Shown here one piece after another: positions 14,667-23,418 of a stretch of DNA of 64,000 bases. The notes beneath the pieces are model-generated. The model saw only the letters and a list, made by a program, of their open reading frames with translations, was not told the DNA's origin and searched no databases. Made by a program: the position numbers and the translations under genes. The DNA is from Escherichia phage moha, in sequence record MN850590.1. The stretch is one strand, 5' to 3'. Position 1 is the first letter of the stretch. Each line of letters opens with the position of its first letter.

Positions 14667-17378
14667 ATGAAAGAATTTTACTTAACGGTTGAACAGATTG
14701 GTGATTCAATTTTTGAACGTTACATCGATTCTAATGGCCGTGAACGTACTCGTGAAGTAGAATATAAACCATCACTGTTTGCTCATTGTCCAGAAAGTCA
14801 GGCTACGAAATATTTCGATATCTACGGTAAGCCGTGTACTCGTAAGTTGTTCGCCAATATGCGTGATGCCTCCCAATGGATTAAACGCATGGAAGATATC
14901 GGTCTTGAAGCATTAGGTATGGACGATTTCAAATTGGCGTATTTGTCTGACACTTATAACTATGAAATCAAATACGACCATACAAAAATTCGTGTGGCTA
15001 ACTTCGACATCGAAGTAACATCTCCAGATGGGTTCCCTGAGCCGTCACAAGCAAAACATCCGATTGATGCTATCACCCATTATGACTCAATTGACGACAG
15101 GTTCTACGTATTTGATCTATTGAATTCTCCATATGGTAATGTAGAAGAATGGTCTATTGAAATCGCTGCTAAGCTTCAAGAACAAGGCGGTGATGAAGTT
15201 CCATCCGAAATTATCGATAAAATCATTTATATGCCGTTCGATAACGAAAAAGAATTGTTGATGGAATATCTCAACTTCTGGCAACAGAAAACTCCTGTCA
15301 TTTTGACTGGATGGAACGTTGAGTCATTTGATATTCCATATGTGTATAACCGAATCAAGAATATTTTTGGCGAATCTACTGCGAAACGTTTATCACCACA
15401 TCGTAAAACTCGTGTTAAAGTTATCGAAAACATGTATGGTTCTCGTGAAATCATTACATTGTTCGGTATCTCTGTTCTTGATTACATTGACCTTTACAAA
15501 AAATTCTCTTTTACCAATCAACCGTCGTATTCTCTGGATTACATTTCAGAATTTGAATTGAACGTTGGTAAACTGAAATATGACGGCCCTATTTCTAAGC
15601 TTCGTGAAAGCAATCACCAACGATATATTTCTTATAACATTATCGACGTGTATCGTGTATTGCAAATTGATGCTAAGCGTCAGTTCATCAACTTGAGTTT
15701 GGACATGGGTTATTATGCTAAGATACAGATTCAATCTGTGTTTAGCCCAATTAAAACATGGGATGCTATTATTTTTAATAGCCTTAAAGAGCAGAACAAG
15801 GTGATTCCACAAGGTCGTTCTCACCCTGTTCAACCTTATCCTGGCGCTTTTGTTAAGGAACCTATTCCAAATCGATACAAATATGTAATGAGTTTCGACC
15901 TTACATCTCTGTATCCAAGTATTATTCGCCAAGTGAATATTAGCCCAGAAACAATAGCAGGAACGTTTAAAGTAGCTCCATTGCATGATTATATTAACGC
16001 AATCGCTGAACGTCCTTCTGATGTGTACAGTTGTTCTCCTAACGGCATGATGTATTATAAAGACCGTGACGGTGTTGTTCCAACTGAAATCACTAAGGTC
16101 TTTAATCAACGTAAAGAACATAAAGGTTATATGCTTGCGGCTCAACGTAATGGTGAAATAATTAAAGAGGCACTGCATAATCCTAATCTTTCTGTTGACG
16201 AACCATTAGATGTTGATTATCGTTTCGACTTCAGTGATGAGATTAAAGAAAAGATTAAAAAGTTGTCTGCTAAATCTCTTAATGAAATGTTGTTTAGAGC
16301 TCAACGTACTGAAGTTGCAGGTATGACTGCACAGATTAACCGTAAATTGCTTATCAACTCACTTTATGGTGCACTTGGCAACGTTTGGTTCCGTTATTAT
16401 GATTTGCGTAATGCTACTGCAATCACAACATTCGGTCAAATGGCTTTACAGTGGATTGAACGTAAAGTTAATGAATATCTGAATGAAGTTTGTGGTACAG
16501 AAGGTGAAGCTTTCGTTCTTTATGGTGATACAGACTCTATTTACGTATCTGCTGATAAAATTATCGATAAGGTTGGTGAATCTAAATTCCGTGATACCAA
16601 CCATTGGGTAGACTTCTTAGATAAGTTCGCACGTGAACGTATGGAACCGGCTATTGATAGAGGTTTCCGTGAAATGTGTGAATACATGAACAATAAACAA
16701 CACTTAATGTTCATGGACCGAGAAGCTATCGCTGGTCCTCCGCTCGGTTCTAAAGGTATTGGTGGATTCTGGACTGGTAAGAAACGTTATGCATTAAACG
16801 TTTGGGATATGGAAGGTACTCGTTACGCTGAGCCTAAACTCAAAATCATGGGTCTAGAGACTCAGAAATCTTCGACTCCTAAAGCAGTACAGAAAGCTCT
16901 TAAAGAATGTATTCGTCGTATGCTTCAAGAAGGTGAAGAATCATTACAAGAATATTTTAAAGAGTTTGAAAAAGAATTCCGTCAATTGAATTATATTAGC
17001 ATCGCGTCGGTATCTTCTGCGAATAACATTGCTAAATATGACGTTGGTGGATTCCCTGGTCCTAAATGTCCGTTCCATATTCGTGGAATTCTGACGTATA
17101 ACCGGGCTATCAAAGGTAATATTGATGCTCCACAAGTTGTAGAAGGTGAAAAAGTATATGTTCTGCCTTTACGTGAAGGAAACCCATTCGGTGATAAATG
17201 TATCGCATGGCCTTCTGGTACTGAAATCACAGATTTAATTAAAGACGACGTACTTCATTGGATGGACTACACTGTTCTCCTTGAGAAGACATTTATTAAA
17301 CCACTTGAAGGATTCACATCAGCAGCGAAACTCGATTACGAGAAGAAAGCATCTCTGTTCGATATGTTCGATTTTTGA
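14667..17378 (+). CDS. 43: DNA polymerase gp43 (family B), RB69-type
   Basis: 903 aa; sequence matches RB69 gp43 as recalled from structural literature; exo motif FDIE, pol motifs DxxSLYPS and YGDTDS. Confidence 0.97.
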   Translation: MKEFYLTVEQIGDSIFERYIDSNGRERTREVEYKPSLFAHCPESQATKYFDIYGKPCTRKLFANMRDASQWIKRMEDIGLEALGMDDFKLAYLSDTYNYEIKYDHTKIRVANFDIEVTSPDGFPEPSQAKHPIDAITHYDSIDDRFYVFDLLNSPYGNVEEWSIEIAAKLQEQGGDEVPSEIIDKIIYMPFDNEKELLMEYLNFWQQKTPVILTGWNVESFDIPYVYNRIKNIFGESTAKRLSPHRKTRVKVIENMYGSREIITLFGISVLDYIDLYKKFSFTNQPSYSLDYISEFELNVGKLKYDGPISKLRESNHQRYISYNIIDVYRVLQIDAKRQFINLSLDMGYYAKIQIQSVFSPIKTWDAIIFNSLKEQNKVIPQGRSHPVQPYPGAFVKEPIPNRYKYVMSFDLTSLYPSIIRQVNISPETIAGTFKVAPLHDYINAIAERPSDVYSCSPNGMMYYKDRDGVVPTEITKVFNQRKEHKGYMLAAQRNGEIIKEALHNPNLSVDEPLDVDYRFDFSDEIKEKIKKLSAKSLNEMLFRAQRTEVAGMTAQINRKLLINSLYGALGNVWFRYYDLRNATAITTFGQMALQWIERKVNEYLNEVCGTEGEAFVLYGDTDSIYVSADKIIDKVGESKFRDTNHWVDFLDKFARERMEPAIDRGFREMCEYMNNKQHLMFMDREAIAGPPLGSKGIGGFWTGKKRYALNVWDMEGTRYAEPKLKIMGLETQKSSTPKAVQKALKECIRRMLQEGEESLQEYFKEFEKEFRQLNYISIASVSSANNIAKYDVGGFPGPKCPFHIRGILTYNRAIKGNIDAPQVVEGEKVYVLPLREGNPFGDKCIAWPSGTEITDLIKDDVLHWMDYTVLLEKTFIKPLEGFTSAAKLDYEKKASLFDMFDF

Positions 17379-17418: not shown

Positions 17419-18054
17419 ATGAAAACTACTCCTATTACTATCGCTATTGACGCAATCGTAAAACAAGCTTCTTCTTTGGCTACTATGGCCAAAGTAATTA
17501 GTCAAAACCCTGCTCGTTATAATGCTATTCTAGAAACTCTTCGACGCCCAGGACTTAGCAATTATGAAAGCCGAGTAATTATTACAGGTGTTGGTAAGAA
17601 TGCTAATATTGCAACTAAAGCTTCTGAGACATTTGCTTCACTCGGTATCCCAAGTATGTACTTGAACACCGGGCATTATTCTCACGGTGATGCAGGATTC
17701 ATTGCGCCTAATGATGTGTTGATTCATATTAGTCGTTCTGGTAAGACCGAAGAAATGATAGGTGTTGCTAAACATCTTCGTATGATTCGTCCGAACGTCA
17801 AACAGATTCTGTTGCATTGTAACCCAGACATTCCACAAGAAAATGAAGCCCTTTTTGATTACTCTTTCTGTACAGGCATCGCAGTAGAGGTTGACGAGAA
17901 CTCTTTAGCTCCGACTATGTCTACTACATTGTTGTTAGCGCTTATCGATACGTTTGCTATCAACCTTTCGTCTGAGCGTGGATTTACCTCTAATGACTTC
18001 CTTAAGTTCCACCCTGGTGGTGCACTAGGTGCCATGTTACGAGGCGAACAATGA
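17419..18054 (+). CDS. SIS-domain sugar-phosphate isomerase (KdsD/GutQ-like arabinose-5-phosphate isomerase, no CBS domains)
   Basis: ITGVGKNANIA, HISRSGKTEE, LAPTMSTT, HPGGALG blocks co-linear with KdsD SIS domain. Confidence 0.8.
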   Translation: MKTTPITIAIDAIVKQASSLATMAKVISQNPARYNAILETLRRPGLSNYESRVIITGVGKNANIATKASETFASLGIPSMYLNTGHYSHGDAGFIAPNDVLIHISRSGKTEEMIGVAKHLRMIRPNVKQILLHCNPDIPQENEALFDYSFCTGIAVEVDENSLAPTMSTTLLLALIDTFAINLSSERGFTSNDFLKFHPGGALGAMLRGEQ

Positions 18055-18194
18055 AAGCAATAACAATAGGACTTTTACTATTGATGCTTGTCATGACTAT
18101 CTACTGGAGCTTAACAGCTCCAGTAATGATTCCAACACTTGTAATTGGATGGATTATGATTGGACTACAAGCAAAGTATGAATGCTTTAACTAG
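18051..18194 (+). CDS. Hypothetical 47-aa hydrophobic peptide
   Basis: ATGA overlap with SIS gene stop; hydrophobic throughout; below ORF-track cutoff. Confidence 0.25.
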   Translation: MKAITIGLLLLMLVMTIYWSLTAPVMIPTLVIGWIMIGLQAKYECFN

Positions 18195-18207
18195 AATAGT
18201 GTACAAT
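18183..18207 (+). promoter_or_regulatory. MotA-dependent middle promoter upstream of nucleotidyltransferase-kinase gene
   Basis: MotA box TGCTTTA (18183-18189), 12-nt spacer, -10 TACAAT (18202-18207). Confidence 0.55.
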
Positions 18208-18235
18208 ACTCCTACTTACCAATGAGGACTTCAAC

Positions 18236-19921
18236 ATGAAAAAAGCTGTTATTCTTGGTGCTGGATTGGCAACTCGTTTATATCCAATAACGCATCATAT
18301 TCCTAAGGTGCTTGTTAACTATAAACAAGACACTATTCTGAGCAATTTGTATACAATTTATTCTGACCTTGGCGCAGATGAAATTATTGTAGTAGTTCAT
18401 TCAAAATTTGCTGAAACTGTTCGAGCTTATTGTGAGCAAGAAGGGTTCAATGTGACTATTCGTACAGTTGATGAAGCGTATGGATCTGCTTATGCTCTTG
18501 CTAAATTACACAAAGATTTAGACGGCCATAATGTAATTGTTAACTGGTGTGATATTATTCCTGATTTTGGTTCATGGTCTTGGAATGTTAACGCAATCTA
18601 TGTTAAAGGTGACGAATGTCGATATAATTTCGACGGTGAAAATATCACTAACGTAGGTTCAACAGGTGGTAATGTTGTAGGAATTTATCAGTTCAAAGAC
18701 TGGGAATTCTATATGGGTTCTACTGATGAAGAAATTCATGAATACTGCAAAGGACGTGATTTCGTAGAATTCCTTTACGCCAGCGCATTCAATAAATCAG
18801 AGCTTATGAATCTAATTGATTTAGGTGATATGCCTAAACTTGAAAAGGCTCATGAAGTTCGTGAACTTAATCGTAGTTTTAATGCAGTTGAAATTGGTGA
18901 AGAAACTGTAACTAAATTCGCATTGACCGAACAGGGTCGAGCTCTTCAGAAAGATGAGATTTCATGGTATCTTAAAGTGAAATCGGATTCAGTTCCTCAG
19001 TTAGTTTCTGTTAATGAAAATAACTTTGAAATGGAACGCATTAAAGGTAAGCCGGCATTTGAATATATTAAATCCAAATCAAGTCTTGCTCGTCCACAAA
19101 TTGTTGATGCAATTTTAGATGCACTGAAATTCAGCACAGACACTTATTTTGTAAGTCCTGAAACTGTTCGTCGTGATTTCACTAAAGAATTCTATACGAA
19201 AGTTATTGATCGTTGTGAAAGCATTCAACCATTGATTGATTCATTTGGTAAAATCACGCATGTGAACTACACTAAGATTGGACGTCTGAAGCCAATGCTG
19301 AAACAAGCTTTAGAACACCTTATTCGTTATCATAACCGTTCTCAGGGGCAGTACTCTGTTATTCACGGTGACCCGAACTTCAGTAATACTATGATTACTG
19401 ATAACGGCGAAGTCAAGTTTATCGACCCTCGTGGATATTTTGGCGAAACCAAGATTTACGGGCCAAAATTGTATGATGAAGCTAAAGTGCTTTATGCTGT
19501 TTCAGGTTATGATGAATTCAATGCTAATCCGACCTGGGGACAGTTTACTATTGATGAAACAACTTGTAATGTGACTATTAACATCAATCCATTAGTTTAC
19601 AAATATGGAAAGATGAGTTCGTTTAACGAGTATCATCATTTGGCAGTGGCAATTATCTGGATTGCATTAGGTGGTTATTTCAAGAATAATCCACTTAAAG
19701 CGGTAGCCGCATATTATAAAGGTATGGAACTTCTGACTAAGCAATTACGTAACATGGGCCGTGTACTTCAGGACGGCTCTATTAGTTATGACGTAGCAGA
19801 ACCTGTAACGGCTACTCTGATTACAAAAAATCCTGGTAAATGGGTACTAACTGATAAAGAAACTGGTGTTTCCTATCGTCCAATCGGTGGCGATATCACT
19901 CATCAATGGGAACGAATCTAA
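18236..19921 (+). CDS. Bifunctional sugar-1-phosphate nucleotidyltransferase / APH-fold sugar kinase
   Basis: N-terminal AVILGAGLATRL nucleotidyltransferase motif; C-terminal HGDPNFSN (HxDxxxxN) and IDPRG kinase motifs. Confidence 0.7.
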   Translation: MKKAVILGAGLATRLYPITHHIPKVLVNYKQDTILSNLYTIYSDLGADEIIVVVHSKFAETVRAYCEQEGFNVTIRTVDEAYGSAYALAKLHKDLDGHNVIVNWCDIIPDFGSWSWNVNAIYVKGDECRYNFDGENITNVGSTGGNVVGIYQFKDWEFYMGSTDEEIHEYCKGRDFVEFLYASAFNKSELMNLIDLGDMPKLEKAHEVRELNRSFNAVEIGEETVTKFALTEQGRALQKDEISWYLKVKSDSVPQLVSVNENNFEMERIKGKPAFEYIKSKSSLARPQIVDAILDALKFSTDTYFVSPETVRRDFTKEFYTKVIDRCESIQPLIDSFGKITHVNYTKIGRLKPMLKQALEHLIRYHNRSQGQYSVIHGDPNFSNTMITDNGEVKFIDPRGYFGETKIYGPKLYDEAKVLYAVSGYDEFNANPTWGQFTIDETTCNVTININPLVYKYGKMSSFNEYHHLAVAIIWIALGGYFKNNPLKAVAAYYKGMELLTKQLRNMGRVLQDGSISYDVAEPVTATLITKNPGKWVLTDKETGVSYRPIGGDITHQWERI

Positions 19922-20307
19922 TGCCCCGTGTAGAAAACATGCTTAATCTTTGTTTTGATGTCGATGATTGCATCACGGAATGGAATAACAATCGTGATTA
20001 CGTGAACTTCAAACCAGACGTCGAAATGGTGTCTGCCATTAATGCCCTGTATGATGCAGGGCATACCATAACGCTTTACACTGCTCGTGGTATGAAGTCA
20101 GTAGGTCCTGGTCGTATAGCAATTGACATTCTCCCAAGTCTGATTCAGAACTTGGAAAACATTGGTTTGAAGTACCATAATTTGCTAACACATAAACCAG
20201 TATATGATTGGATTATCGACGACAAAGCTATGCGTCCTGATGAATTCAAAGCTCTTATGAATAAAGGCGAATTCGAAACATTTAAATCATATAAACCAAA
20301 TCTATAA
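19921..20307 (+). CDS. HAD-superfamily phosphatase (small, KdsC/GmhB-like)
   Basis: Motif I FDVDDCIT, motif IV IIDDK; ATG 19921 overlaps upstream stop (alternative ATG 19906). Confidence 0.6.
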   Translation: MPRVENMLNLCFDVDDCITEWNNNRDYVNFKPDVEMVSAINALYDAGHTITLYTARGMKSVGPGRIAIDILPSLIQNLENIGLKYHNLLTHKPVYDWIIDDKAMRPDEFKALMNKGEFETFKSYKPNL

Positions 20308-20364: not shown

Positions 20365-21525
20365 ATGAATACTTTTAAAATCGGAACGAATTTTGATTTA
20401 GCTCTTCTTGATAAAATCGTAGAGCTCAATAAAACCTATCCTAATAGCTTGATAAACGAAGTATATGGCTCTACAAGAGAAATGGCTTTTGTAGCAGCCA
20501 GACCTGATTTTAGGCTTCCTGACGTTGACAAAAAGATGTTAGAAGACTACGTTAAACGTTGTAACGAATTAGGTATTTGCTTTAACTATACACTCAACAC
20601 GATAAATCCTGGTTCAAAAAGAGAACTAGTTGAGTGGAAGAAGAAAGCTATTCAGGATTATGTTCAGTATCTTTGGTCAATAGGCGTATGGCGTATTACT
20701 ATCGCTAACCCTGTTGTTATGGAAATTGTTCGTGAAGTCAATAAAGATATTGAGATTGAAGTTTCAACAATTCTACATGTCGATGCTGTAACTCAAATAA
20801 AATACTTGCATGACCAATATAACATCAAAAAGGTCTGTTGCGGAATTCATAAGAACCGTTCAGTTTCTTTCCTGAAGCGTGCAGCAGAGTTTTGCAATAA
20901 GAACAATATAATATTTGAAGTTCTTGTAAATGAGTTCTGTTCTAATGCTGGTAAAGGGTATACAACACATTGTAGCTATCGTGACTCTTGCTATATTTTC
21001 CATAGTACTGATGTTACCGCTGATGATGCTAAATCCTTAAATGGATATCCAATGCAACACTGCATTAAAGCTCGTGATACAGACCCATTTAACTGGCTGA
21101 GAACTCGTTTTGTTCGTCCTCAAGATTTGAAACTTTATAATGATATTGGTATCACTCAATTCAAAGTTTCAGGACGTACAGGTAGCACAGACTACATTTT
21201 GAAAGTTCTTGAAGCATACGCTTCTGAAAAGTTTGAAGGTAATTTGTTAGAACTGTGGAAGCCTTTAGAGACTATTTTCACTCTTGAAAACGAAACTGAG
21301 TTTTCACATACAGTAAATATTGAAACCTCTTTGTTAGATGGCTTTTTAGAAAAAAGGTGGTTCAGACATCCAGATTTCGATTGTGCTAATGAAATCTGCG
21401 GGACGACGTGTACATATTGTGAAAGATATTATAAACGTCAATTATCTAAAAACGGGTTAGCAGAAAACTCTATATCTATTATTGATATAACTAACTCTGA
21501 TGACGCTTTGAGGTACCCGGAATGA
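20365..21525 (+). CDS. Cys-rich putative Fe-S enzyme (family unassigned; U32-like or radical-SAM-like)
   Basis: 386 aa; CX3CX2C (CGTTCTYC) near C-terminus plus internal Cys cluster EFCSNAGKGYTTHCSYRDSC. Confidence 0.55.
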   Translation: MNTFKIGTNFDLALLDKIVELNKTYPNSLINEVYGSTREMAFVAARPDFRLPDVDKKMLEDYVKRCNELGICFNYTLNTINPGSKRELVEWKKKAIQDYVQYLWSIGVWRITIANPVVMEIVREVNKDIEIEVSTILHVDAVTQIKYLHDQYNIKKVCCGIHKNRSVSFLKRAAEFCNKNNIIFEVLVNEFCSNAGKGYTTHCSYRDSCYIFHSTDVTADDAKSLNGYPMQHCIKARDTDPFNWLRTRFVRPQDLKLYNDIGITQFKVSGRTGSTDYILKVLEAYASEKFEGNLLELWKPLETIFTLENETEFSHTVNIETSLLDGFLEKRWFRHPDFDCANEICGTTCTYCERYYKRQLSKNGLAENSISIIDITNSDDALRYPE

Positions 21526-21802: not shown

Positions 21803-22519
21803 ATGGGAAAACATAACACAATGAAATATATCAAAGCCGCAGATTTTCAAACCGCATTTAAAGCAGTCAATCGTGAAATTTTAGAAAACCCGGAATTCGT
21901 AACTGATTCTCGTATTGGACGTTGTAATGAAATTGGGTCTATGACAGTAGTTGTTGACACTCCATCATCATTCAAAATGACCGACCCACGTATTAACCGC
22001 ATCTCTTATGAATATGCCGAAGACTTCTGGAAGTTTATGATTTCTGGTGGTACCAACGCAGAAGAAGCGTTTAAGGCATATCCTAATGTCGCTAAATTTA
22101 TTTCTAAACCAAAATCAGATGTTTTGCCGGCGAACTTCAACACTTTCTATGGTCCTCGCATTGCGGCTCAATTACCAGCTCTTCTAAAAGAACTTAAAGA
22201 GAAGCCTAACTCTCGAAGAGTTGTGTTCCAAATTCTAGAAAGTTCTGATCAGGCTTTGCTTGATTCGGACGAAACGCTTGAATATCCATGTACTGACTCA
22301 GTGACTTATTATATTCGTGATGGTAAGCTTTATACCCACTGTCATATGCGTTCTCAGAACTGTGCTGTTGTTATGCAGTTGGATTTTTATCTCCAAGGAA
22401 AATTACTTCATTATATCGCTAACGAATGTGGTGTAGAAGTTGGTGATTATACTCATACCATGGTAAGTGCCCATGTGTTTGAACGTGATTTTGATTATGT
22501 TAAAGGATTCCTTGACTAA
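21803..22519 (+). CDS. 42: ThyA-fold pyrimidine hydroxymethylase (dCMP hydroxymethylase-like)
   Basis: Candidate nucleophile Cys in EYPCTDSV and HMRSQN block typical of thymidylate synthase/dCMP hydroxymethylase family; position of T4 gene 42. Confidence 0.7.
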   Translation: MGKHNTMKYIKAADFQTAFKAVNREILENPEFVTDSRIGRCNEIGSMTVVVDTPSSFKMTDPRINRISYEYAEDFWKFMISGGTNAEEAFKAYPNVAKFISKPKSDVLPANFNTFYGPRIAAQLPALLKELKEKPNSRRVVFQILESSDQALLDSDETLEYPCTDSVTYYIRDGKLYTHCHMRSQNCAVVMQLDFYLQGKLLHYIANECGVEVGDYTHTMVSAHVFERDFDYVKGFLD

Positions 22520-23418
22520 TGGCTATTTTCCGCGTACCTATCTTGAGTATGCGGTCTTATGAAACTGGACAGTATGCTATCCTTAAGGATGGCAACTTCC
22601 AACTTCATTTGCACCGTGCTAATCCAGGTGATGTGATTACATATCCACGTAATGCATCTGATATTAAAGAATGTGAACGTCTTTTCCCAGAATTTAAGTT
22701 TGTTCCATTATGGTATAAAGATAACGCGTATAACACTCGTAAATATTTCTGGTCTGAAAATGAATTTGTGGTTGATTCATTAATTGCTTATTATGATTGT
22801 GATTTTCTAATCACAGATATCACTGGATATGATGGTGCTTTTGATGTAGAATTCAATTTCAATATCACTGCAGACCCTAATAAACCACGTTTTTATATTG
22901 ACGAATTCTTAAAAACTGATATGTTGTCGGTTAATCGTTCACTTCAAACTACTGTGTTGAATGAACGTCAAAAAGAAGTGCTGGTTAACGCAGGTGCAAA
23001 TGGTAATAAGATTATCGTAACGCAGAAAGTTATACGTCCTTCCATCATGCAGCGTCTTGTAGGTGATTTGGCTCCTATTCATCTAGATGGTATTTTTCAT
23101 CCATTTCGAATTAGTGACCCATGCTATCGTTTTGAACAAGTGGTTGAATGTGCAATTCAATTAGGTCAACCGCTTTATATAACCGATCCAAATAATAGCT
23201 TCGACAGAAATAAGTATCCTGAAGAAGCGTTGATTCGAATTTTTAAACCAACTAAAACTGAGTACTATCAAATTCTTAAAGGACGTCCGAAGATTCAATA
23301 TTTCGAAAATCCTGAAGAAGTATTCCATCCAGGTCTTGGTGAGTTCATCTACTTTAATGCTTTAATTTCTTCGCCGTATAATATACCTAAATACGAAGAT
23401 GTCGTAATCGAGGAATAA
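22519..23418 (+). CDS. Hypothetical protein in the beta-gt slot (candidate DNA-modification enzyme)
   Basis: 299-aa ORF, no recognised motifs; lies where T4 has beta-glucosyltransferase. Confidence 0.55.
   Translation: MAIFRVPILSMRSYETGQYAILKDGNFQLHLHRANPGDVITYPRNASDIKECERLFPEFKFVPLWYKDNAYNTRKYFWSENEFVVDSLIAYYDCDFLITDITGYDGAFDVEFNFNITADPNKPRFYIDEFLKTDMLSVNRSLQTTVLNERQKEVLVNAGANGNKIIVTQKVIRPSIMQRLVGDLAPIHLDGIFHPFRISDPCYRFEQVVECAIQLGQPLYITDPNNSFDRNKYPEEALIRIFKPTKTEYYQILKGRPKIQYFENPEEVFHPGLGEFIYFNALISSPYNIPKYEDVVIEE

Follow-up and report, generated by a model that had tools for sequence, protein, structure and literature searches.

The DNA of bacteriophages RB69 and DLP3 carries mono- and poly-arabinosylated 5-hydroxycytosine, as reported by Lee et al. 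2026, and the sugar acceptor in the DNA is 5-hydroxycytosine, not hydroxymethylcytosine (PMC13326640). The 5-hydroxy base is made by RB69 gp48, a thymidylate-synthase homolog, the activity of which was shown experimentally, and arabinose on every cytosine of RB69-like DNA blocks many restriction enzymes (PMC13326640). Thomas et al. 2018 proposed ORF53_52c and ORF055c of RB69 for the synthesis of uridine diphosphate (UDP)-arabinose (PMC6024577), and Lee et al. model the corresponding protein, gp52:53, as an N-terminal nucleoside diphosphate (NDP)-sugar pyrophosphorylase followed by a C-terminal kinase (PMC13326640). According to the summary that Lee et al. give of He et al. 2026, AfhE and AfhF of phage HY126 make UDP-arabinose from arabinofuranose-5-phosphate. 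In that summary, AfhE has two activities, those of a D-arabinose-5-phosphate 1-kinase and of a UDP-arabinofuranose pyrophosphorylase, and AfhF is a separate Mg-dependent HAD phosphatase, which acts on the 1,5-bisphosphate between the two steps of AfhE (PMC13326640). Here we describe the gene at positions 18236–19921 of a 64,000-nucleotide stretch of Escherichia phage moha (MN850590.1; the whole stretch is called the window). By analogy with these systems, its product is very probably the intact counterpart of RB69 gp52:53, grouped with HY126 AfhE, and a bifunctional UDP-D-arabinofuranose enzyme for the arabinosylation of 5-hydroxycytosine in DNA.

HldE, the bifunctional enzyme of ADP-heptose synthesis, joins a kinase and a transferase in one protein, and the two catalyse non-consecutive steps. 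The kinase of HldE is N-terminal and has a ribokinase fold, and the C-terminal domain has a cytidylyltransferase fold. The logic of the ADP-heptose pathway (GmhA, HldE, GmhB) is like that proposed for the moha protein, with an SIS isomerase, a kinase that phosphorylates a sugar phosphate at the anomeric position, a HAD phosphatase for the distal phosphate, and a nucleotidyltransferase; the parallel was drawn before through a GmhB-like match (PMC13326640). In the moha protein, in contrast to HldE, a transferase of the RmlA/LicC fold is N-terminal and a kinase of the APH fold is C-terminal, and the likeness is functional, not ancestral. The pairs AmgK/MurU, of N-acetylmuramic acid recycling, and LicA/LicC, of phosphocholine activation, each consist of two distinct proteins that work one after the other, on substrates that are not phosphorylated. 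The moha protein resembles MurU at the level of fold only, far under the equivalog cut-off, and neither a lic nor an amgK gene context is present around its gene. A preliminary description of the window, made from the letters alone, likened the protein to a LicC-LicA fusion; the folds are indeed alike, but the choline context of a licB transporter and a licD transferase is missing, and the protein does not belong to that group.

The same description took the domain order to be the reverse of that in FKP-type salvage enzymes. FKP of Bacteroides fragilis, however, has an N-terminal pyrophosphorylase, the transferase of which comes with a beta-helix domain, and a C-terminal kinase (PMC11982464). 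FKP and the moha protein are both bifunctional chains and share their domain order, but differ in the fold of the kinase. The kinase of FKP belongs to the GHMP type, and the enzyme turns a salvaged free sugar into a guanosine diphosphate (GDP)-pyranose in successive steps. The moha protein has neither a GHMP-type kinase nor a beta-helix pyrophosphorylase, and its kinase has the APH/choline-kinase fold. A bifunctional arabinokinase/pyrophosphorylase of Leishmania also activates D-arabinose (PMC3347535).

Domains and catalytic residues of the moha protein

The moha gene is listed among the open reading frames (ORFs) of the window as an intact plus-strand frame with an ATG start (18236–19921), and encodes 561 amino acids (aa). 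The protein can be divided into an N-terminal sugar-1-phosphate nucleotidyltransferase domain (aa 1 to about 210; 18236–18865, plus strand), predicted to be a UDP-arabinofuranose pyrophosphorylase, an APH/choline-kinase-fold domain (aa about 211–507; 18866–19756, plus strand), predicted to be a D-arabinose-5-phosphate 1-kinase, and a beta-rich C-terminal tail of 54 residues (aa 508–561; 19757–19921 including the stop codon, plus strand). The preliminary description had recognized the fusion of a sugar-1-phosphate nucleotidyltransferase to a kinase of this fold in a single polypeptide, and Pfam, the invariant catalytic residues, and the AlphaFold2 and Foldseek results bear it out. The motifs that it quoted are where it had read them, AVILGAGLATRL at aa 4–15, HGDPNFSN at aa 377–384, and IDPRG at aa 396–400.

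The Pfam family NTP_transferase matches aa 3–99 with an E value of 8e-10 and a score above the curated cut-off, and the kinase part has only weak, sub-threshold matches to kinase-fold families (Fructosamin_kin, EcKL, and RIO1) at aa ~344–409. An alignment of 54 homologs, with identities down to 29%, served for the analysis of conservation and for the AlphaFold2 model. The N-terminal domain contains the GxGxR...K signature of nucleotidyltransferases and the acidic metal ligands, and G10, R14, K24, D106, D195, G197, and D198 are invariant in the alignment. The C-terminal APH/choline-kinase fold contains the HxDxxxxN loop and the metal-binding aspartate. Here K227, E241, G378, D379, N384, D397, P398, R399, and G400 are invariant, and His377 of the loop is conserved in at least 90% of the aligned homologs. 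The basic residues R326, R399, K417, and K488, considered as possible contacts of the 5-phosphate, are also invariant.

The AlphaFold2 model has a predicted local distance difference test score (pLDDT) of 94.7 and a predicted template modelling score of 0.91; the pLDDT of the tail is 82–90. The top match of the model in Foldseek is MurU (PDB: 4y7u), with 3ham matching the kinase part. The top structural matches that Lee et al. list for gp52:53 (4y7t, 1jyk, 3ham, and glucosamine kinase) are the same as those obtained here (PMC13326640). With the NCBIfam equivalog model of MurU (NF045761), the score is 24.8 bits, the cut-off being 250. When solved structures were searched by sequence, there was no AfhE-like entry, and the matches covered the N-terminal domain only, the best being LicC with an E value of 2e-5. 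The boundary between transferase and kinase, for which the preliminary description had called for a prediction, is located near aa 206–215 in the secondary structure of the model. A kinase-only PHROG that matches aa 211–517 and the frameshift at codon 218 in RB69 both agree with this boundary.

Orthologs, gene cluster and product

Many RB69-like phages, members of the genus Mosigvirus, share the 6.6-kb region around the moha gene with 98% identity, and 151 phage records contain a single match spanning at least 80% of it. The window itself is assigned to an RB69-like Mosigvirus. RB69 ORF053c and ORF052c together are 98% identical in nucleotides to the moha gene and contain one extra C, at ORF nucleotide 654 in codon 218. 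When Thomas et al. 2018 resequenced RB69, the extra C was absent, and a single 63.9-kDa protein was expressed (PMC6024577). Judged by sequence, the moha protein represents RB69 ORF53_52c (gp52:53) in its unbroken form. The RB69 record NC_004928 (locus L001) shows both ORF052c/053c (L001, 6095–7781) and ORF046c/047c (L001, 2598–3498) as split, and the equivalents in the window (18236–19921 and 22519–23418) are single intact ORFs, in agreement with the published sequencing errors of RB69.

The moha protein is 100% identical to a "nucleotidyltransferase" of phage vB_Eco_F27 and 99.5% identical to a "putative enzyme involved in UDP-arabinose biosynthesis" of Bas47/AlbertHofmann, annotated as such in the Bas47 GenBank record MZ501047. 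The identity is 72.6% to the homolog from Serratia phage X20, 57% to that from Acinetobacter phage DLP1, and to the DLP1/DLP3 group as a whole, 54% to those from Acinetobacter phage Maestro and Shewanella phage Thanatos (TH1_060, P0030), and 52% to that from Serratia phage 92A1. The match in DLP3 was obtained with the tail alone as the query. Maestro, 92A1, and DLP3 are reported to carry arabinosyl-5-hydroxycytosine (PMC13326640). Propagation of Thanatos requires TH1_060, which also has 561 residues, and complementation in trans is possible (PMC12838424). The moha protein is thus an ortholog of RB69 gp52:53, Bas47 gp151, DLP3 gp82, and TH1_060, and is like these, and presumably HY126 AfhE, in its length of 561 residues, domain order, neighbouring genes, and position between gene 43 and uvsX. 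We found no substantive difference between it and the phage arabinose-5-phosphate 1-kinase/pyrophosphorylase group, in which the RB69 record is split by the erroneous base.

Homologs are present in 373 phage records, in 364 of them at full length. Among T4-like phages without glucosyl-hydroxymethylcytosine, the gene is thus common. The preliminary description had considered such a protein unusual in a T4-like phage; this count and the proposal of a role in UDP-arabinose synthesis in 2018 speak otherwise (PMC6024577). The description is correct in outline, and its subject is already known from the 2018 proposal, from the annotation of Bas47, and from the biochemical characterization of the family reported in 2026.

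The gene is clustered with those for an arabinose-5-phosphate isomerase, a HAD phosphatase, a 5-hydroxy-deoxycytidine monophosphate (dCMP) synthase, and a predicted DNA arabinosyltransferase. The order of the genes here is gene 43, SIS gene, 47-aa ORF, the moha kinase-transferase gene, HAD gene, U32 gene, 79-aa ORF, ThyA-homolog gene, a gene for a 299-aa protein, and a gene for a 182-aa nucleotide kinase, and it matches RB69 from gp56 down to gp45 and Bas47 genes 154–145. The SIS-domain protein (17419–18054, plus strand; Pfam SIS, E value 2e-10) is by synteny with RB69 and Bas47 the equivalent of RB69 gp55, and its gene ends 182 nt upstream of the kinase-transferase gene. It belongs to PHROG 5670, named "arabinose 5-phosphate isomerase", and matches the NCBIfam models KpsF/GutQ (E value 5e-32) and KdsD (E value 2e-30), both with scores below the cut-offs. 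The small HAD-like phosphatase (19906–20307, plus strand), with a DVDDC motif, is the equivalent of RB69 gp51 and AfhF, its role being taken from the literature (PMC13326640), and matches the capsule biosynthesis phosphatase model TIGR01689 (NCBIfam) with an E value of 2e-13 and a score below the cut-off. Its gene is directly downstream of the kinase-transferase gene in all four relatives inspected. In the window the two share 16 nt, or, with the ATG at 19921 taken as the start, a single nucleotide (TAATG), which suggests that their translation is coupled. Further downstream are the thymidylate-synthase homolog, a 5-hydroxy-dCMP synthase equivalent to RB69 gp48 (21803–22519, plus strand; Pfam Thymidylat_synt, E value 2e-15), and a predicted DNA arabinosyltransferase of 299 residues, equivalent to RB69 gp46:47 (22519–23418, plus strand), as judged from PHROG 3891, synteny, and Table 1 of Lee et al. 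(PMC13326640).

The preliminary description proposed arabinose as one of the sugars to be assayed, and the orthology to UDP-arabinose enzymes and the biochemistry of AfhE, as relayed by Lee et al., bear this guess out (PMC13326640). The same architecture might instead serve another pentose, such as xylose or a deoxypentose, or use cytidine diphosphate, GDP, or deoxythymidine diphosphate as the carrier. The nearest transferase folds include LicC and RmlA, which use cytidine triphosphate and deoxythymidine triphosphate, respectively, the names of homologs in databases vary and include GlmU and guanylyltransferase, and a (deoxy)pentose was reported in the study of Thanatos (PMC12838424). The DNA of RB69-type phages, however, carries arabinose, and the cluster in the window is about 98% identical to theirs (PMC13326640, PMC6024577, PMC13390438). 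The arabinose-5-phosphate isomerase homolog 182 nt upstream, and the UDP-arabinose reported for AfhE in the summary by Lee et al. (PMC13326640), also argue against a different product, to which we give very little weight.

The nearest folds of the kinase domain are those of glucosamine kinase, maltokinase, and choline kinase. Because this fold family (3ham, 6yxs, and 4r77) includes aminoglycoside phosphotransferases and choline kinases, and the Pfam matches of the kinase domain are unspecific, the C-terminal domain could in principle be a protein, antibiotic, or choline kinase, for example in a LicA/LicC-like phosphocholine pathway, unrelated to DNA modification. The gene is, however, constantly linked to SIS, HAD, ThyA-homolog, and glycosyltransferase genes, and there are no choline-pathway genes nearby in the window. 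In addition, distant homologs of ~890–955 aa, with 27–35% identity, unite HAD, SIS, nucleotidyltransferase, and kinase domains, the whole of the phage pathway, in a single polypeptide, which is evidence of a functional linkage of the four activities. A Butyrivibrio protein that joins the transferase-kinase architecture to an SIS domain was noticed already by Thomas et al. 2018 (PMC6024577). Arabinose-5-phosphate kinase activity is reported for the presumed ortholog AfhE in the account of Lee et al. (PMC13326640). We therefore rejected a protein, antibiotic, or choline kinase on the basis of gene context and domain fusions, and regard it as extremely improbable.

The slot between gene 43 and uvsX contains in T4 imm.1, imm, gene 42 (dCMP hydroxymethylase), the beta-glucosyltransferase gene, and segA. 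Its contents in the window show that the whole DNA-modification module differs at a conserved position, as was remarked by Thomas et al. 2018 (PMC6024577). The gene 43 (DNA polymerase) equivalent is a 903-aa ORF (14667–17378), assigned by synteny with RB69 and Bas47. The hydrophobic and conserved 47-aa ORF, equivalent to RB69 ORF054c (18051–18194, plus strand; PHROG 3610), overlaps the stop codon of the SIS gene with its start by 4 nt (ATGA). The U32-family homolog, equivalent to RB69 gp50 (20365–21525, plus strand), has a weak match to UbiU as its sole NCBIfam match. It is separated from the HAD gene by 57 nt in the window. Some relatives have an additional gene of about 640 bp between the HAD and U32 genes, as in X20 (L006, 6541–7179), where its annotation is that of a putative segB endodeoxyribonuclease, and in L007 (6536–7174); the spacing is also wider in L011, L014, L015, and L017. 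In T4, the equivalent region contains segA.

Proposed order of the reactions

In the proposed pathway, ribulose-5-phosphate would be converted to D-arabinose-5-phosphate by the SIS isomerase (17419–18054) or by the host KdsD/GutQ. The C-terminal APH-fold kinase would then use adenosine triphosphate to phosphorylate the anomeric C1 hydroxyl, giving arabinofuranose-1,5-bisphosphate; retention of the 5-phosphate until C1 is phosphorylated would, as we infer, fix the furanose form of the ring. Next, the small HAD phosphatase (19906–20307) would strip the 5-phosphate, and the N-terminal nucleotidyltransferase would combine arabinofuranose-1-phosphate with uridine triphosphate (UTP) to give UDP-arabinofuranose. 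Finally, glycosyltransferases would place arabinose on 5-hydroxycytosine in the DNA. Since the HAD step lies between those of the kinase and the transferase, the two domains of the moha protein would catalyse non-consecutive steps, and the protein would not be self-sufficient. The preliminary description expected an activated sugar to be made from a free sugar within one protein. This is contradicted by AfhE, the kinase of which, in the account given by Lee et al., uses arabinose-5-phosphate, with a separate HAD enzyme acting between its two steps (PMC13326640). By analogy, the moha kinase most likely acts on a sugar phosphate and not on a free sugar.

The domain folds, catalytic residues, orthology, and gene linkage come from the present analysis, and the enzymology is that of a protein from another phage, taken from a secondary account. 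Several points weigh against the assignment. The two activities are those reported for HY126 AfhE. The equivalence of the moha protein to AfhE is deduced from the remark of Lee et al. that RB69 gp52:53 and AfhE are analogous (PMC13326640); no HY126 record is among the matches listed in the phage searches. UTP as the nucleotide comes from the literature and not from the moha sequence, and no curated family model of Pfam, NCBIfam, or PHROGs names the full-length protein. TH1_060 had no pyrophosphorylase activity on xylose-1-phosphate with any nucleoside triphosphate, xylose-1-phosphate not being the proposed substrate (PMC12838424). Table 1 of Lee et al., furthermore, lists the phosphatase first and the kinase as acting on free arabinose (PMC13326640).

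The order in that table would correspond to a salvage pathway in which the HAD enzyme frees D-arabinose from arabinose-5-phosphate, the kinase acts at C1, and the N-terminal domain directly makes NDP-arabinose, so that the steps are consecutive, as in FKP and AmgK/MurU. The labels of the table read "dephosphorylates Araf5p to Ara" for gp51 and "Phosphorylates Ara to Araf1p" for the C-terminal domain (PMC13326640). The nearest kinase folds named above use unphosphorylated substrates, and domains that are fused commonly catalyse consecutive steps, as in FKP. The text of Lee et al., in contrast, adopts the result of He et al., as far as it is given there, in which arabinose-5-phosphate is converted to the 1,5-bisphosphate by AfhE before AfhF acts (PMC13326640). 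Free arabinose is mainly a pyranose, whereas the product is a furanoside, which by our own reasoning also disfavours salvage. The structural matches of the HAD enzyme include heptose-1,7-bisphosphate phosphatase (PMC13326640), which likewise speaks against salvage. We consider the salvage order unlikely, and prefer the order in which the kinase acts before the phosphatase.

Expression signals, C-terminal tail and distant homologs

At its 3′ end, the 47-aa ORF contains a sequence resembling a MotA-box middle promoter, TGCTTTA-N12-TACAAT (18183–18207, plus strand), which matches the pattern exactly. The pattern TGCTTTA-N11–13-TANNNT has nine matches in the window, compared with 0.98 expected from shuffled sequence, which is about a nine-fold excess. 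Serratia phage X20 and Yersinia phage fHe-Yen9-01, which represent two other genera and the proteins of which are just 66–73% identical to that of moha, have the box, with unchanged spacing and TACAAT, upstream of their orthologs. The box was not found upstream of the orthologs in Acinetobacter phage DLP1 or in JS98. The promoter noticed in the preliminary description is therefore a real, enriched, and partly conserved pattern, but not one that accompanies all orthologs. The moha gene is probably transcribed from this MotA-dependent middle promoter. A Shine-Dalgarno sequence, GAGGA (18224–18228, plus strand), can be read 7 nt 5′ of the ATG and is retained in the orthologs. A second match to the MotA pattern, TGCTTTA-N13-TATGAT (19488–19513, plus strand), is located within the kinase-transferase ORF, about 400 nt 5′ of the phosphatase gene, and may be due to chance or be an internal promoter. 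Between 17300 and 24100, neither sigma-70 promoter-like sites (22 versus 26.9 expected) nor terminator-like sites (two, both on the minus strand, versus 3.7 expected) are enriched.

The C-terminal tail (window 19757–19918) contains the motif TK.P.KW.L.D.ETG..Y.P....W. It is present in all T4-like homologs and in all homologs with at least about 36% identity, and is missing from more distant ones. Among 80 loci from IMG/VR, 29 encode the tail and 51 do not. A small HAD gene, a ThyA-homolog gene, and a glycosyltransferase gene are present in all 29 tail-bearing loci, with the HAD gene mostly right after the kinase-transferase gene, and in only two, four, and three, respectively, of the tail-less loci. 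The tail thus tracks the DNA-modification context, a pattern that could be due to shared ancestry alone. With the tail alone as the query, matches in cultured phages were found only inside this gene family, and there was no stand-alone or differently fused copy. We entertain as a tentative and rather doubtful idea that the tail is a docking module for the small HAD enzyme, which would give a non-covalent kinase-phosphatase-transferase assembly that passes on the bisphosphate and 1-phosphate intermediates. Such an assembly would be the counterpart of the covalent HAD-SIS-transferase-kinase fusions.

The four-domain fusions were found at loci L003–L005 (P0084), L049, L050, L053, L055, L057, L058, L061–L063, L067, L068, L072, L074, L081, and L084. 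The fusion proteins (P0084, P0088, P0089, P0091, and P0092) are mostly from giant-virus metagenome bins, and P0091 is from a transcriptome of Ceratiomyxa fruticulosa. P0084 adjoins an RNA polymerase Rpb2 encoded by a single gene, Rpb10, and a MutS-HNH gene. There is no ThyA homolog within 8 kb at L003, which suggests that the sugar may feed a glycan there rather than DNA.

An SIS homolog is present within the flanks of 50 of the 80 IMG/VR loci, usually immediately upstream. No SIS gene is detectable in phages of the JS98 type (Dhakavirus), in Klebsiella phages, and in some phages of Proteus, although all of these retain the genes for the kinase-transferase, the HAD enzyme, the ThyA homolog, and the glycosyltransferase (L009, which is JS98, L026–L032, L036, L040, and L056). 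At the position of the SIS gene, JS98 has a 166-aa ORF (L009, 3940–4440) without a Pfam match; this ORF, orf43, was considered as a diverged SIS isomerase and rejected, as it has no SIS match. The phages without the SIS gene presumably use host arabinose-5-phosphate. The lack of the isomerase with retention of the kinase and HAD enzyme fits an entry into the pathway through arabinose-5-phosphate of the host.

The U32 homolog is missing from the arabinosylation clusters of the Acinetobacter and JS98-type phages. On phage contigs of 39–230 kb, U32 homologs with 48–50% identity lie beside kinase-transferase genes of 26–30% identity (L075–L078, L082, L083, L087, and L088), and all but one of these contigs are without a detectable ThyA homolog. 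This combination hints at a place for U32 in the sugar branch.

If the tail is a docking module, the same route may lead to an NDP-pentofuranose in some Nucleocytoviricota, where it would serve glycans or DNA. In the phages, the enzyme is a central step of a counter-defence, as it supplies the activated arabinose for the DNA (PMC13326640).

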